Below are positions 15,956 to 60,456 of a stretch of 64,000 bases of DNA, one piece after another. Origin of the DNA: Candidatus Nomurabacteria bacterium (GTDB lineage Bacteria; Patescibacteriota; Patescibacteriia; HK-STAS-PATE-3); the NCBI GenBank assembly GCA_023898465.1, contig CP060223.1, positions 576,001 to 640,000 on the forward strand, read 5' to 3'. The position numbers and the translations under genes were made by a program. The notes below the pieces were generated by a model. It saw nothing but the letters and a program-made list of their open reading frames with translations. It made no database searches and was not told where the DNA came from. The first letter of the stretch is position 1. Each line of letters begins with the position of its first letter.

Positions 15956-17053
15956 ATGACTGCATACACGAAAAAACGCATACTCCTCATTTTAACCGGC
16001 GGCACGATTGCTGGAAATGTAGCGAGTAATGAAATTACCAAGCAAGAGAAATCTCAACCAGACAGCTTCCTGTCAATTTTGAAAGACTCCACTGAAATCG
16101 TCAAACGAAATTGGAGTATTGAGATTGAAGCCAGCACCAAGGAACTGTTTAATGTTGATAGCTCTGATATGCTACCGGCCAACTGGTCCGCTATGGCTGA
16201 GACTATTGCTGAAAACTACGACGAGTATGATGCCTTTATTATCCTCCACGGTACAAATACTATGGGCTATACTGGCGCCGCCCTGTCATTTGCATTGGAG
16301 AATGTGAACAAACCGGTTATTTTAACGGGTGCACAGGTTCCACTGGGTTACCTGGGCTCGGACGCAACTACCAACTTAGTAAACTCACTTCGTTTAGCAG
16401 TCTGGGGCTATCACCCGATCAAAGGGGTGATGGCTGTATTTGGTAGTAAAATTATTGCCGGTACGCGAATTAAAAAAGGCACGGATTTTGACTACGATCC
16501 CTATAGCTCCTTTATTGCCGGAGCCCTAGGGCAGATTGGTCGATTCATTCGCATTAACGATGCGGCGCTTGATAAATATATTAGCTACTTGTCAAAAAGT
16601 AAGCCTCTGGCAATTCAAGCCCGGGTGCTTAGTGTGAAAAAGGACTTTGACACAAAGAGCATTGCCTCGCTTACTGAATTTCCCGGAATGTCACCTGACA
16701 TCTTCCAGACCCTGGTTGAGCAAAATGGCATTAAGGCTTTTGTGTTCCGGGCTTTTGGGGCTGGTGATGCCAGTCAGCATCTCTTCAAAGGCTTTGAGTA
16801 TTTGAAAGAAAAGCAAATTCCAATCGTGGTTACCTCTCAAGCCCCGCAAGGTGTGGCTAGTTTCCAGGTAAACGAATCTGGAAAACAACTCAAGGACCGA
16901 GATCTGGCTATCCCCGCCTATGATATGAGCATTGAGTCCATCACAACAAAGTTGGCTTGGCTCTTAGCGCAGGGTATAAGCTACGAACAGATCAAATCTA
17001 AGATGCTCGAAGACCTCCACGGCGAGATCAATATCGAGAACGAATTACTCTAA
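15956..17053 (+). CDS. ansA: L-asparaginase (type I, cytoplasmic-like)
   Basis: ILLILTGGTIAG (catalytic Thr motif), ILHGTNTMGYTGAALSF, KPVILTGAQ. Confidence 0.8.
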   Translation: MTAYTKKRILLILTGGTIAGNVASNEITKQEKSQPDSFLSILKDSTEIVKRNWSIEIEASTKELFNVDSSDMLPANWSAMAETIAENYDEYDAFIILHGTNTMGYTGAALSFALENVNKPVILTGAQVPLGYLGSDATTNLVNSLRLAVWGYHPIKGVMAVFGSKIIAGTRIKKGTDFDYDPYSSFIAGALGQIGRFIRINDAALDKYISYLSKSKPLAIQARVLSVKKDFDTKSIASLTEFPGMSPDIFQTLVEQNGIKAFVFRAFGAGDASQHLFKGFEYLKEKQIPIVVTSQAPQGVASFQVNESGKQLKDRDLAIPAYDMSIESITTKLAWLLAQGISYEQIKSKMLEDLHGEINIENELL

Positions 17054-17186: not shown

Positions 17187-19280
17187 CTACCCTCTTCCCC
17201 TAGACCGTCGCTGCTTCTTCTCCTCAAGCAAAATGTCGAGGACGCTTTTTGGCTCACCATCACTATCCATTTCAATGAAGAAATCATCAGGTGATCCCCG
17301 CTCCTCTGTCAGGGTCAGCTCTTCGTAGAGGTGCTCAGGCAGCTCGGTGATAAATGGAGACGGTCGCTGCATGTACATGGCAGTTGAGCGCATATTTACG
17401 CCGATGGAATAACTGAGGAAGAGATGCGTCTTAGCGCGAGTCACCGCAACATAGAAGAGGCGTCGCTCTTCTTCAATTCCACCCTCTTCTTTTAGGGCTC
17501 GAGGATTTGGAAAAGATCCATCATTGCAGCTGATAACAAAGACAACGTCCCACTCCAGACCTTTTGCCTGATGGATAGAGCTGACCACCATTGCCTCATC
17601 CTCACTTGCTGCGCCCGTTTCAGTGACCACGCCAAAAGATTCTTGCAAAGAAACTTCAGCTAAGAATTCGCTCAGCTTTTCATAGCGTTCAGCAAAACGA
17701 GCCAACTCAAGCAAGTCATCAATACGTTCATTCGCGTTAGGATAGGTCACCTGCAGATATTCCCGATACTCGCCTTTGGCTAATTCCTGAATCAAATCAT
17801 TTGGCGCTCGCTTCTCGTGCTGCAAAAGTTTCTTCAAGGTCTTTTGAAAACTGCGGAAACCCTCGCTGGAGCGTTGCGTTAAGGCTTTTTCGCAGGCAGC
17901 GCCGGCCAGCTCCTCAGCACTCGGCAGATCACTCAAACATTCGCGCCATAGCTTTACTCCGGTTTCCACCCCGATGCCGGGATAGAGCTGAATCACGCGT
18001 AAGAAAGCTACCTCATCGCGAGGATTATCAAGGAGTTTTAAGTAGGCTAACAAATCTTTAATATGCGCGCGTTCAAAAAAGCGCAAACCCCCGCGATAAT
18101 CATACGGGATATCCCGGCGTGTTAATTCAAATTCCAGCGACTGTGATTGATACGACGCGCGGAATAATACGGCGATGTTTTGCAAAGGAATCCCCTCTTC
18201 ACGGAACTCCAGGACACGCTGAGCAATGAATTCAGCCTCTTGTTCGCTGGAGCTGGCCGGCACAACCAAAGGCTTCACTACCCCGTGACGAATCGGATGG
18301 AGTGTTTTTTCAAACTGATCAGGGTTATGTCGGATCACATCATTCGCTACTTCTAATACCGGCTTGATCGAACGGTAATTTGTTTCTAGCTTAAAGGTTT
18401 GGCAATTAGGATACTGCTGCGGGAAATCTAAAATATTCTGCACCGTCGCCCCGCGAAAAGCGTAAATGCTCTGCGCGTCATCACCCACCACTAACAAATT
18501 CCCATGCACCGAAGCAAGTTGGCGTACAATTGATGACTGCAGACGATTTGTATCCTGGTACTCGTCGACCAAAACGTATTTGAATTGTGTGGCTAACTTT
18601 TCACGAATATCAGGCCGTGTCTGTAGGAGTTGATCCAGCAAGTAGAGCATGTCATCGAAATCTACCAGGTGATTTTTCTTTTTTCGCTTCACATACTGCT
18701 TCTGCACCGCCTCTAACTTATCCTCTAATTGGAGGAAGCTTGAAAAGCGCTTTTCTAATATATCGCGTAAATCGGACTGCGTATTAATGCAAAGACTGAG
18801 AATACTCTTCACCACAGCTGCCGAAGGAAATCGCTTACCCTTCGTATCAATACCCTCTTCTTTCACACACACATTGATGAGTGACTTAGCGTCCTCTTCA
18901 TCCAGGATAGTGAAATTAGGCGGGAAGCCAATTGCGTTCCCAAAACGGCGCAAAAGGATATTTGCAATGTGATGGAAAGTGCCGCCCCATAGGCCTTTCG
19001 GGTAAGCACCCAGCAACTCCTCCACTCGAGTCAACATTTCTCGTGAGGCTTTATTCGTAAAAGTAACTAAAAGGATGTTATCAGCCTTTACACCTTGCTC
19101 AAGAAGGTAAGCTACTCTATAGACAATAGTGCGGGTTTTGCCGGATCCAGCACCTGCTAACACCAAAACTGGCCCGTCCCCTCTCTGCACCACATCCAGC
19201 TGCTCCTGATTCAGCTCTTCTTTATAATTGACCTTCAAGGTACTCGGGTCTGTCGATTTGCGAATCACATATTCTGCCAT
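17187..19280 (-). CDS. uvrD: ATP-dependent DNA helicase, UvrD/PcrA/Rep family
   Basis: Walker A VLAGAGSGKTRT. DEYQDTN motif. 697 aa. UvrD-like C-terminal domain. Confidence 0.88.
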   Translation of the reverse strand: MAEYVIRKSTDPSTLKVNYKEELNQEQLDVVQRGDGPVLVLAGAGSGKTRTIVYRVAYLLEQGVKADNILLVTFTNKASREMLTRVEELLGAYPKGLWGGTFHHIANILLRRFGNAIGFPPNFTILDEEDAKSLINVCVKEEGIDTKGKRFPSAAVVKSILSLCINTQSDLRDILEKRFSSFLQLEDKLEAVQKQYVKRKKKNHLVDFDDMLYLLDQLLQTRPDIREKLATQFKYVLVDEYQDTNRLQSSIVRQLASVHGNLLVVGDDAQSIYAFRGATVQNILDFPQQYPNCQTFKLETNYRSIKPVLEVANDVIRHNPDQFEKTLHPIRHGVVKPLVVPASSSEQEAEFIAQRVLEFREEGIPLQNIAVLFRASYQSQSLEFELTRRDIPYDYRGGLRFFERAHIKDLLAYLKLLDNPRDEVAFLRVIQLYPGIGVETGVKLWRECLSDLPSAEELAGAACEKALTQRSSEGFRSFQKTLKKLLQHEKRAPNDLIQELAKGEYREYLQVTYPNANERIDDLLELARFAERYEKLSEFLAEVSLQESFGVVTETGAASEDEAMVVSSIHQAKGLEWDVVFVISCNDGSFPNPRALKEEGGIEEERRLFYVAVTRAKTHLFLSYSIGVNMRSTAMYMQRPSPFITELPEHLYEELTLTEERGSPDDFFIEMDSDGEPKSVLDILLEEKKQRRSRGRG

Positions 19281-19632
19281 AGCTCACGTATCCTAGCATA
19301 TCCCTATCTCAACAGAAAATAGAAAGGGGCAACTCCTCAGAGTCACCCCATGAATCTCAGCAGCGGCGACCGGATCCGTAATAGGATTCCTTTTCAGCTC
19401 GAGTCGCCTGGCGGCAATGATCGAAGGGGTGCAAACTGCACTCCAACCAGACACCTCAACTGCCAGTGAGTTGCATGGTCCCCTTGCAATCCTTGACCGG
19501 GCACTGATCACCCCTCTTCACTTCATCGAAGTTGGGCTTCCCTGCGTCCTCTTGAACAGCCGCGTTTCCCATGATCCCCTCCTCAGAACGTGAGTATTGA
19601 GAACAAGTGAACAAAAAAACACTAGCACGAGA

Positions 19633-19678
19633 TGAAAAAAAAGAAAAAGCCTCAGTGCAAACGCATGAGGCTTGGTAA
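19633..19678 (-). terminator. Intrinsic terminator (minus strand). Hairpin AGCCTCATGCGTTTGCACTGAGGCT followed by TTTTTCTTTTTTTT.
   Basis: Plus strand shows aaaaaaaagaaaaagcctcagtgcaaacgcatgaggct. Read on the minus strand the U-tract follows the 8-bp stem. Confidence 0.6.
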
Positions 19679-19679
19679 A

Positions 19680-20440
19680 GGTTTGACCCGGGACAGTGCG
19701 CACGCAAACGTGCTGCCAGGGACACCGCCCCGGGTCCGGGCGTGGCTCTCAGCCAAAAAAGGATCGTATACAGATCCTAGCGCGAGCGCTTCGTTAGGTC
19801 AAATAAAGAAAAAGGCCCCGTCACTACTACATTGGATGTGTAGCGTGACGGGGCCTGCGCCGGCGCGTAGGAGCGGCGGCGTGAATCGGCCTATCAGCGA
19901 ACCCGGCGGGCGTTTGCAGCGAGTGCTGTTCCCAATGGGTCGACCGCGGATGGCCGAAGTGTGCGGACCGGAGAGGGCGCGTCCCGGCGACAAAAAGTGT
20001 CGTCGAGGCGAAACCGACTAGCCGGTCGCGATGAATGTAATCAGAGATCAAGCCGTCAAAGGACGGTATGCTTCGTTCGAGCTGATGAGACCCTGCATCA
20101 GTGACAGGTGGTCACAACCGGGTCTTCCGATGAAAAGCTGTGACCATCGACTCCCACTTAGCGTTCACGCCGTTGATGCTGCGCATCATCATTGGTGCGC
20201 CGCTTCATGGGGCGAGTTAGGGCAGGACCGATGGTCCTACCCGCAAAGCTAGGTCGGATGTCCGTGGGTCATTCGTTCCTCCTTCTGCCCCTAACGCGTG
20301 TCAGGGGCGGGGTCCGCGCCGTCCGTCAGGCGCGTCGCCGGCCGTCGAGGGCGATCGTCGCGATGGTCGTCGTCGAATCGTAATAGGCGCTGCGGAGCGA
20401 AGTCGGGGGTCCATGGAGATTCATCTCGGACTCCTTTCGG
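19680..20440. other. GC-rich (about 60-65%) non-coding island with no credible ORF. Candidate structured ncRNA or degraded foreign DNA.
   Basis: Composition contrasts with the 45-48% GC neighbours. All ORFs here are short, overlapping and R/P/A-rich. Minus-strand terminator-like hairpins at 19814-19855 and 19761-19777 and a promoter-like TTGACC-17-TAGGAT (minus) at 19802-19774. Confidence 0.4.
19801..19855 (-). terminator. Intrinsic terminator (minus strand). GGCCCCGTCAC...GTGACGGGGCC followed by TTTTTCTTTATTT.
   Basis: 11-bp perfect stem read directly. The T-tract lies on the minus strand (plus-strand aaataaagaaaaa at 19801-19813). Confidence 0.6.
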
Positions 20441-20638
20441 TTCGCGGTGATATCGTCTGGCGACACCACCATCCACGTACTCTCTCAAACATCTCTGGTT
20501 GTTGAGGTGCAAGTTGGGTCGCTTCTCGCTAACCAACGGGAAGACACTAGCACAGCTCAAGAAATATGTCAACCCCAGGGGCTCAATAAATTTTCTGCAA
20601 ACAAAAATAAAATCAAAAAAGTCCAATAAAAAGCCCTC

Positions 20639-20666
20639 TTGACATTCGGTTTTTCTTCGGTATATC
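20639..20666 (+). promoter_or_regulatory. lexA promoter (TTGACA-16-TATATC) with the 16-mer TTCGGTTTTTCTTCGG occupying the spacer. Candidate LexA operator.
   Basis: cTTGACAtTTCGGTTTTTCTTCGGTATATCatagtcacATG. The identical 16-mer recurs at 21321-21336. Confidence 0.5.
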
Positions 20667-20674
20667 ATAGTCAC

Positions 20675-21301
20675 ATGACCGTTGTACTACCAAAGAAGAA
20701 ACAAGAGCTCCTGAAATACCTTCAGGAATATATTACTGAACATAGCTACGCCCCTACCCTGACCGAGATAGCGAAAAAGTTTGGCGTGTCCTCACTTGCT
20801 ACGATTCACGAGCATCTCGCCTTTTTAGAGGAGAACGGCTTTATCCGTCGTGATAAGCAACAAGCCCGTGGAATTACCCTGCTCAATCCAGAGGATAACG
20901 CTACGCAAAGTGAAAGCGCCTTGAATACAATAGAATTACCAATCGTTGGGGTTATCACCGCAGGTGCACCAATTGAGGCTATTGAGGATCGCGACCGCAC
21001 GCTTTCCGTCCCCCAGGAAATCGCTGGCCGTAAAAACGCCTATGTATTAAAGGTGCGCGGCGATTCTATGATTGAAAGTCTCATTGCTGACGGTGATTTC
21101 GTTGTTGTAGAAAAAACTGAATACGCAAAAGATGGTGACACTGTTGTAGCAATGCTAGAGGACGGCACCGCTACCTTAAAGAAATTCTTTAAGCATAAGA
21201 GCTATATTCGCCTACAACCAGCTAACAAGGCATATGCACCAATTAAAGTACCATCCGTAGTTATTCAAGGACGCGTACTTGGTGTCATGCGCAAAATGTA
21301 A
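20675..21301 (+). CDS. lexA: LexA repressor (S24 peptidase family)
   Basis: N-terminal wHTH (LTEIAKKFGVSSLATIHEHLAFLEENGFI). C-terminal S24 domain with GDSM (Ser nucleophile) and a later Lys. Start moved to the internal Met at 20675 because the promoter lies inside the longer annotated ORF. Confidence 0.85.
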   Translation: MTVVLPKKKQELLKYLQEYITEHSYAPTLTEIAKKFGVSSLATIHEHLAFLEENGFIRRDKQQARGITLLNPEDNATQSESALNTIELPIVGVITAGAPIEAIEDRDRTLSVPQEIAGRKNAYVLKVRGDSMIESLIADGDFVVVEKTEYAKDGDTVVAMLEDGTATLKKFFKHKSYIRLQPANKAYAPIKVPSVVIQGRVLGVMRKM

Positions 21302-21320: not shown

Positions 21321-21336
21321 TTCGGTTTTTCTTCGG
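21321..21336 (+). promoter_or_regulatory. Second copy of TTCGGTTTTTCTTCGG, 3 nt upstream of the Y-family polymerase start codon
   Basis: tatcTTCGGTTTTTCTTCGGcctATG. Exact 16/16 identity to the lexA promoter element. Confidence 0.45.
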
Positions 21337-60220: not shown

Positions 60221-60456
60221 AATAGAGTGCAAACGCCGAAGACTTGGGATTTTTGGGGCTCCATTTGAAACCAAGGATCTCGAGCCTGTCGAAAGAGACT
60301 GTTTCAAATGAGGAAAGGGACATGCGCCGTAAGGGCTTTCAAACGCCGAGCGCTTGGGCCGACAGGTTAAGTGCGAGGCGTAAAGGCACACGCTGGCAAA
60401 GGGTGGAGTGTTCTCGTTTTAACGAGGACACGCAACCCGCAGCCAGCGATGGGCCG
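60221..60456 (-). ncRNA. Conserved structured RNA element, copy B. Immediately 3' of tRNA-Tyr and 5' of the small hypothetical gene.
   Basis: See copy A. Contains an extra roughly 45-nt insertion carrying a third copy of the CCCAAG..TCGGCGTTTG motif. Small hairpin CUCGUU-AAAA-CGAG covaries with GACAA-CAAA-UUGUC in A. Confidence 0.5.

Follow-up and report, generated by a model that had tools for sequence, protein, structure and literature searches.

Locus and composition of the island

The window analysed here, a stretch of 64,000 nt from a Candidatus Nomurabacteria bacterium (GenBank assembly GCA_023898465.1, contig CP060223.1, positions 576,001 to 640,000 of the forward strand), carries uvrD on the minus strand (start at 19280) and lexA on the plus strand (ATG at 20675), separated by a spacer of 1394 bp. 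Within this spacer lies a GC-rich island, the subject of this study, which contains a candidate transcription unit on the minus strand bounded by a promoter (P1) and an intrinsic terminator (T1). The exact LexA and UvrD proteins of the window are USN53111.1 and USN53112.1, and the relatives of both place the window in the Patescibacteria, with source names that include Candidatus Kerfeldbacteria and Nomurabacteria. An assembly chimera was ruled out by three independent Logan assemblies that are identical to the window over the stretches covered, namely the whole spacer (L001), 549 bp (L002) and 193 bp (L003).

The original prediction, made from the nucleotide sequence alone, gave positions 19680-20440 as 60-65% GC against about 46% for the window. 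We measured 61.5% and 46.3%, respectively, in agreement with this description, and 60.4% at 19805-20537. Over 300-nt segments, the GC fraction averaged 0.463 (s.d. 0.043) and rose to 0.58-0.63 in the island; values of 0.58 or more were found in the island segments and in one segment at the transfer RNA cluster near 60301, and nowhere else in the window.

The stretch had also been described as free of open reading frames (ORFs). This holds for the GC-rich island, in which no conserved ORF was found, but not for the stretch as a whole, which includes a credible ORF of 38 amino acids (aa) behind a Shine-Dalgarno (SD) sequence at 19456-19572 on the minus strand. Only two ORFs in the spacer exceed 110 aa, at 19632-20021 (plus strand) and 20291-20674 (minus strand). 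Both overlap terminators and the lexA promoter, match no family and are broken in a sister strain (L024) by frame-breaking indels and a 500-bp presence/absence difference.

A candidate minus-strand transcription unit

P1 and T1 delimit a candidate RNA of the minus strand (Table 1). Both signals had been anticipated by the original prediction, as a TTGACA-17-TAGTGT promoter at approximately 20540-20570 and a hairpin with a U tract at 19801-19855, and both were recovered. P1 was read directly from the sequence; the promoter scan omits it, its -10 hexamer matching 3 of 6 consensus positions. Its hexamers and the TGC extension are identical in L024, and in a third strain (contig L021) the promoter reads TTGACA-N18-TGCTAGTTT, with the hexamers kept and the spacer between them diverged. 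As a sequence pattern, hexamers retained across three strains around a varying spacer are the usual footprint of a working promoter. T1 has a predicted folding energy of -32 kcal/mol (z = -6.5), and its copy in L024, which differs by one C-G to U-G change, reaches -28.2 kcal/mol (z = -6.0).

Site counts in the region are not above chance on their own (3 promoter-like sites versus 1.5 expected, and 4 terminator-like sites versus 1.8), so the weight of these signals derives from the comparative data: a promoter and an intrinsic terminator lie on one strand, P1 is kept in L024 and L021, and T1 is kept in L024. Conservation in related genomes had been put forward as a check of the original prediction, and the unit is kept in the sister strain together with P1 and T1. 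Of the one or two GC-rich non-coding RNAs (ncRNAs) of about 550 and 130 nt envisaged earlier, the long minus-strand unit remains the best reading, with its length revised to about 730 nt, whereas the 130-nt unit is absent from L024.

Constraint without a coding signature

The sister strain (L024, Logan run SRR17818317) encodes UvrD and LexA proteins that are 99% identical to those of the window, and its four-fold degenerate sites differ at 23.5% in uvrD and 24.2% in lexA. Its spacer of 906 bp includes the GC-rich unit and lacks window positions 19302-19804, which hold a second unit of about 130 nt, the 38-aa ORF and a terminator, T3. The third strain (SRR32105342), which is an outgroup by synonymous divergence (0.36-0.38), is represented by contigs L021 and L029; these break at both island edges, leaving a comparison of two full copies.

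Aligned with positions 1026-1745 of L024, the unit from P1 to T1 shows 75 substitutions in approximately 720 positions (about 10%). Divergence is unevenly spread: it reaches 30% over the 40 columns that separate P1 from the lexA promoter, as expected under neutrality, falls to 10-20% in the 5' quarter of the unit and to 2-5% in the core, and exceeds 25%, with a 30-nt indel, at 19900-19960, before T1, which is again near-identical. Relative to synonymous sites, the unit thus evolves about 2.5-fold more slowly overall and about 5-fold more slowly in its core.

Codon structure left no trace in this pattern. Substitutions fall on the three phases of the unit as 27/25/23, compared with 16/6/128 in uvrD; 13 of the 17 indels are not multiples of 3; and stop codons of mixed type number 4-11 per frame in all six frames. 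The GC periodicity of the unit (0.164) is close to that of shuffled sequences (0.149 +/- 0.023), with values of 0.23-0.26 in lexA and uvrD. The low divergence, the lack of codon periodicity, the frame-breaking indels and the stops in every frame together indicate that the unit is conserved and non-coding; neutral sites diverge by 24%, compared with approximately 10% for the whole unit and 4.5% for its core.

Table 1 Features of the uvrD-lexA spacer, with those of the long unit first and neighbouring elements after
Feature	Position	Strand	Details
Promoter P1	20572-20544	-	TTGACA (20572-20567), 17-nt spacer, extended -10 TGC-TAGTGT (20552-20544; hexamer 20549-20544)
Candidate RNA, about 730 nt	19805-20537	-	60% GC; predicted ends, from about 7 nt after the P1 -10 to the T1 U tract
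Most conserved RNA core	20060-20350	-	13 substitutions in 290 nt (4.5%) against L024; 2 in the central 120 columns
sORF1, 32 aa (MNLHGPPTSLRSAYYDSTTTIATIALDGRRRA)	20424-20326	-	behind AGGAG
Mini-ORF, MTHGHPT-stop with perfect SD (GAAGGAGG)	20285-20249 (ORF 20272-20249)	-	between two strong hairpins
sORF3, 11 aa (MVTAFHRKTRL)	20147-20112	-	behind GGAG at short spacing; weak candidate
Intrinsic terminator T1	19856-19800	-	hairpin of 17-18 bp, stem 19855-19814, then UUUUUCUUUAUUU
Promoter-like P2 (TTGACC-17-TAGGAT)	19802-19774	-	absent from L024
Short hairpin with U6	19778-19760	-	overlapped by the P2 region 19754-19802
Second small unit, about 130 nt	19633-19767	-	long hairpin 19736-19685, then T2; absent from L024; no Rfam match
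Terminator T2	stem 19673-19650, U tract to about 19633	-	-15.1 kcal/mol, z = -5.1
38-aa ORF (MGNAAVQEDAGKPNFDEVKRGDQCPVKDCKGTMQLTGS)	19456-19572	-	behind GGAGG; extended -10 TGCTAGTGT upstream at 19627-19619
Terminator T3, after the 38-aa ORF	19349-19316	-	-16.7 kcal/mol, z = -3.5
uvrD extended -10 TGCTAGGAT	19290-19298	-	ends 9 nt before the uvrD ATG (19280)
lexA promoter TTGACA-18-TATCAT	20639-20668	+	contains direct-repeat motif TTCGGTTTTTCTTCGG (20645-20660)

Short reading frames within the unit

Three short ORFs (sORFs) with SD-like motifs lie on the minus strand of the unit, and all three are retained with these motifs in L024. The mini-ORF had been predicted as GAAGGAGGAACGAATG followed by MTHGHPT-stop, and it is present as described; in L024 it encodes MNHGHPT, with start and stop unchanged. 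sORF3 reads MVTAFHRKTLP in the sister strain. sORF1 has 31 aa there (MYLHGPPTSIRTGSYYDSTSTDSALDGRRRA) and ends at the same stop, across indels of 3 nt and 6 nt. A codon-by-codon reading of the alignment gives at least 8 amino-acid changes in sORF1 versus 2 synonymous ones, a pattern in which its peptide shows no sign of constraint. Local GC3-type periodicity (GC at third codon positions) was found at 20280-20400, in the phase of sORF1, and a direct reading of the window and L024 forms revealed no membrane-spanning stretch. If sORF1 is translated, what matters would seem to be either translation itself or the peptide ends alone.

Predicted folding

Stretch 19600-20580 was predicted to fold more stably than shuffled sequences on both strands (minus, z = -6.1; plus, z = -7.7). 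Over 150-nt segments, z fell to -5.7 at the terminators and to between -2.6 and -3.8 in the core (minus strand); it was approximately -1 elsewhere in the island and approximately 0 in the flanking genes. Four local hairpins, as well as T1, form with a pairing probability above 0.7 in both the window copy and L024. Among the elements with this probability in both strains, the hairpins at 20308-20287 and 20242-20220 clamp the SD sequence and the mini-ORF. Applied to the two sequences, which are about 90% identical, RNAalifold identified 3 double and 10 single pair-compatible changes, including one A-U to U-A exchange by which a long helix is lengthened. These models weakly support a partly structured RNA, the support for conservation of structure coming from two sequences. 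What argues for function is accordingly the constraint on the sequence, together with the retained promoter and terminator, rather than the structure.

Searches for known families and homologues

Covariance-model searches with cmscan of both strands against all 4227 families of Rfam 15, at E up to 10, returned only noise, with 14-18 bits against gathering scores of 33-80; at the gathering score, a search of the whole window gave no match in the island. The tmRNA and RNase P hints of the original prediction (GAUUCGACG, GUCCGGGC and GAACCCGGC) are chance matches: Rfam finds neither RNA, ARAGORN finds no tmRNA, two of the three words lie on the plus strand, and one of these (GUCCGGGC) falls in the segment that L024 lacks. 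tmRNA (RF00023) and bacterial RNase P (RF00010, RF00011) were thus excluded, with no Rfam match at E up to 10 on either strand, none at the gathering score anywhere in the window and, for tmRNA, none by ARAGORN. Nor did cmscan assign the island to OLE, GOLLD, ROOL, HEARO/IscB omega RNA, raiA, the group I or II introns or the self-cleaving ribozymes. A hammerhead-like CUGAUGA word on the plus strand was set aside, as the core does not fit by eye and Rfam is silent.

Protein searches were equally empty. Pfam (ten ORFs, the small ORFs and six frames) and NCBIfam (six frames) yielded nothing at E up to 1-10, and a 76-aa stop-free plus-strand frame across the core had 0 matches among 1.84 billion protein representatives. 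A six-frame query of a collection of 5.8 billion proteins was also empty, but it failed to return P0241, a spurious ORF of 100 aa that had been called on the L024 copy and served as the positive control, and it was discounted. The original prediction had named clear protein homology of a frameshifted gene across the island as a finding that would count against it; no such homology was found in six frames, and a pseudogene of a known protein was excluded, as far as Pfam and NCBIfam reach, by the lack of a match in any frame and of overall GC3 periodicity.

At the nucleotide level, blastn found nothing among plasmids and only chance matches of 41-57 nt among phages (E of at least 0.06), and two conserved 23-mers had no match among viral contigs. 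Searches of all 30 fetched loci with blastn and nhmmer, the latter with a single sequence and with a two-strain profile, recovered only the source organism and L024, and a covariance model of the 160-nt core (R1) matched only itself among 23 loci. Scans of genome and metagenome collections based on lexA returned relatives of up to 76% identity, none of which carries the island. No convincing terminal inverted repeats were detected, a 9-nt perfect repeat (19452/20501) being mutated in L024; neither a second copy of the island nor a transposase was found in the 64-kb window. As far as the window reaches, these results argue against an insertion sequence (IS) element, a miniature inverted-repeat transposable element or a repetitive extragenic palindromic repeat. 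Complementarity of the unit to the rest of the window was at chance level.

Interpretation and rival explanations

We interpret the island as an independently transcribed, horizontally acquired RNA gene of approximately 730 nt that functions mainly as RNA and may be dual-function, and assign this reading a probability of about one half. Transcription would run from P1 to T1 on the minus strand, and the product would most likely be a trans-acting, partly structured regulatory or dual-function RNA. Its 5' part would contain short translated ORFs, namely sORF1 and the SD-led 7-codon mini-ORF clamped by two hairpins, while the nearly invariant 290-nt core would act at the RNA level, for example by binding a protein or other RNAs.

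Several observations weigh against this interpretation. Only two full copies are known, and at about 90% identity they put covariation beyond reach. Folding is no weaker on the plus strand (z = -7.7) than on the minus strand, and much of the global z-score is contributed by the terminators. In an unbiased test against each single-sequence minimum free energy structure, substitutions respect the pairing only marginally, with 29 of the 37 pairs touched being broken (P of approximately 0.05-0.11), and L024 shares only 52 of the 121 pairs predicted with high probability in the window copy. Synonymous divergence between the two strains is patchy (0.10-0.32 per 300 nt), and given this patchiness, a recombination tract of recent date could mimic constraint in the core. 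Finally, the searches recovered homologues within one species-level lineage only, and the element may therefore be young and marginal in function.

The conserved sORFs suggest a different reading of the same transcript, as an mRNA for small peptides encoded by sORF1 and/or the other mini-ORFs, with the GC-rich remainder serving as a long, structured and stabilizing 3' untranslated region. The retention of all three frames in the sister strain, the survival of sORF1 with its stop in place across two indels, the local periodicity in its phase, and the presence of small SD-led ORFs in neighbouring cassettes both here and in L004 would fit such an mRNA. Yet the excess of amino-acid over synonymous changes leaves the sORF1 peptide unconstrained, two in-frame indels arise by chance in about 1 in 9 cases, no protein family is matched, and the best-conserved segment (20060-20350) lies mostly outside sORF1 and lacks 3-nt periodicity. 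We regard this explanation as unlikely, although deserving of attention. Somewhat more doubtful is a functionless acquired remnant, such as a fragment of a mobile element, with signals that are fortuitous or left over and a low divergence that reflects recent recombination. The variable contents of the uvrD-lexA spacer, the foreign-looking GC content, the patchy synonymous divergence, and the lack of homologues in the plasmid, phage, viral, locus and protein-representative searches are all compatible with it. Against it, divergence is graded on a scale of 100 nt rather than confined to a single clean tract, P1 retains its hexamers around a changing spacer in three strains, and the high GC content has been maintained since before the strains split; the island also lacks terminal inverted repeats, a second copy in 64 kb and any protein remnant. 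Genomes of the Candidate Phyla Radiation (CPR)/Patescibacteria are tiny and gene-dense, and a constrained 0.7-kb non-coding unit is unlikely to be junk in such a genome.

In L024, T1 lies about 50 bp upstream of the uvrD -10 in the same orientation, as it might if the unit were a long cis-acting leader of uvrD with regulated termination at T1. However, uvrD has its own extended -10, 9 nt before its ATG and conserved in all strains and relatives; in the window the hairpin at 19778-19760, T2, T3 and the 38-aa ORF intervene between T1 and uvrD; and relatives run uvrD without such a leader, making this arrangement quite improbable. Least credible of all is that the island holds a diverged copy of a known RNA or the frameshifted remains of a known protein gene: only the three short word matches point that way, against Rfam scores at the level of noise, no tmRNA by ARAGORN and no six-frame match in Pfam or NCBIfam at E up to 1.

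Our preferred reading of an acquired RNA gene leads to a more tentative proposal, that the unit could be the first known representative of a new class of large Patescibacteria RNAs (about 0.7 kb), horizontally acquired and under selection, with tiny translated ORFs and an almost invariant 290-nt core. To our knowledge, almost nothing has been published on the ncRNAs of CPR/Patescibacteria, and a constrained non-coding unit of 0.7 kb would give studies of RNA biology in this uncultured group something concrete to start from. With two copies known, the unit stands at present as a well-documented candidate rather than a discovery.

Comparison with known RNAs

Screens of long GC-rich intergenic regions have uncovered large GC-rich ncRNAs (PMC6429828, PMC8632094, PMC8723152). 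The island shares several properties with OLE, GOLLD, ROOL, HEARO and raiA: an extended intergenic region (1.39 kb, in a densely packed genome) with a GC content far above that of the genome, its own promoter and intrinsic terminator, a size of 0.6-0.8 kb without a coding signature, and a sporadic distribution with the look of horizontal acquisition. It differs from them in having no covariance-model match, two copies without covariation support, a moderate structure signal concentrated in a few hairpins, and SD-led mini-ORFs.

RNAIII of Staphylococcus aureus is 514 nt long, encodes the 26-aa delta-haemolysin and is transcribed divergently from the agr operon. Like RNAIII, the island unit is long, carries a short SD-led ORF in its 5' part followed by a longer conserved non-coding part, and lies back to back with the promoter of a regulator. 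The two share no sequence or structural homology, however; no targets or pairing motifs were identified for the island unit, its peptide is poorly conserved, and its host belongs to the CPR and has a genome of only about 1.1 Mb. Small genes linked to the SOS response include the type I toxin-antitoxin pairs tisB/istR-1 and dinQ/agrB and the division inhibitors yneA, divS and chiZ, which are divergent from lexA. The island resembles these as a small ORF/RNA unit transcribed divergently from lexA, but it has no LexA-box-like motif at P1, no hydrophobic helix in sORF1 and no evident antisense partner, and it is missing from relatives with the same synteny. The unit is thus an orphan, outside all curated Rfam families, with the anatomy of large GC-rich ncRNAs and dual-function RNAs.

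Variable contents of the uvrD-lexA spacer

Among the relatives, L023 keeps uvrD facing lexA-dinB and the genes that follow (LexA 73% and UvrD 70% identical to those of the window) across a spacer of 207 bp, and L026 has the same gene order (UvrD 63% identical) with a spacer of 279 bp. As these relatives share the gene order but have short spacers, the island is a lineage-specific insertion. This finding and the foreign-looking GC content support one part of the earlier description of the island as a degraded horizontally acquired fragment; a degraded gene is not supported, as neither a protein match nor GC3 periodicity was found.

Other relatives carry different sequences at the same place. 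The spacer of L004 (6034-8330) is 2.3 kb long, unrelated to the island and without an ORF of more than 93 aa. It contains two minus-strand units of about 350 nt, approximately 1.12-1.14 kb apart. A promoter block of 29 nt (TTGACAAT.GTGGATAAATACGCTAA) and a terminator block of 25 nt are common to both, but the sequences between these blocks are unrelated, and each includes a small ORF behind an SD sequence; the arrangement looks cassette-style. The spacer of L005 (4136-5420) holds an ORF for an IS200-like Y1 transposase (Pfam Y1_Tnp, E = 9e-9) beside about 600 nt of GC-rich (0.56-0.59), ORF-poor sequence that is not similar to the island. In the spacers of L004 and L005, Rfam (E up to 1) returned noise only. 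Since spacer content differs in this way (1.39 kb in the window, 0.9 kb in L024, 2.3 kb in L004, a transposase in L005 and nothing in L023 and L026), the sequence comparison identifies the uvrD-lexA spacer as an insertion hot spot in the clade, collecting unrelated small transcription units. Such a hot spot is of interest for small genes and genome plasticity in CPR bacteria.

On the other side of uvrD, L024 (4182-5348) and L029 have a YibE_F-family gene downstream where the window (about 15956-17053) has an asparaginase gene. With this exchange and the variable spacer towards lexA, the flanks of uvrD differ between strains on both sides.

Elements between T1 and uvrD

The original prediction had also listed the P2 sequence TTGACC-17-TAGGAT at 19802-19774 and a terminator-like hairpin at 19633-19678, and both are present, the latter as T2 (z = -5.1). 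The short hairpin with U6 at 19778-19760 may act as a back-up terminator after T1 and not form part of a separate RNA. Within the 130-nt unit, the GC-rich hairpin at 19736-19685 reaches -36 kcal/mol; being missing from L024, this unit lies outside the conserved element.

The 38-aa ORF contains a CPVKDC motif, is called as a gene in L001 and has no Pfam match. It is absent from L024; in L029 its stop is kept, with 6 changes in 29 aligned residues, and the T3 stem shows pair-preserving changes. Since the outgroup strain still carries both the 38-aa ORF and T3, segment 19302-19804 was probably lost by L024. The 130-nt unit and the 38-aa ORF would represent cassettes of their own, dispensable and inserted at the same hot spot as the long unit.

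The lexA promoter and its surroundings

The lexA promoter with its motif TTGACATTCGGTTTTnCTTCGGT is the sole part of the spacer conserved in all relatives fetched. The 16-mer TTCGGTTTTTCTTCGG is a direct repeat, TTCGG-N6-TTCGG, with a period of 11 bp, and it recurs unchanged at 21321-21336, within the 38-bp gap that precedes dinB. A direct-repeat LexA motif is mentioned for Patescibacteria in a report cited by PMC7739468 (its reference 52). The probable LexA operator of the clade studied here is TTCGGTTTTTCTTCGG, itself a direct repeat. The motif and its relaxed forms were found only at the lexA and dinB promoters, and at none of P1, P2, P3 or the uvrD promoter; a relaxed pattern gave a single match with 1 mismatch in the island (20425-20440), away from any promoter and at the count expected by chance.

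The original prediction had considered the location between two SOS genes to be of note. This was not sustained: nothing resembling a LexA box lies at P1, and the island, whose position between lexA and uvrD looks incidental, is missing from relatives that share its neighbouring genes. Membership of the SOS regulon, or an SOS-induced type I toxin-antitoxin system, was rejected: no operator lies at P1 and no hydrophobic toxin peptide was found.

The lexA -10 (20663-20668, plus strand) ends 6 nt before the start codon, and that of uvrD ends 9 nt before its own. Judging from these distances, the lexA and uvrD mRNAs would be leaderless or nearly so. The uvrD -10 is kept in L024 and L029 and reads TGCTATAAT in L004 and TATACT in L023, and its arrangement relative to the start codon is kept in all four.

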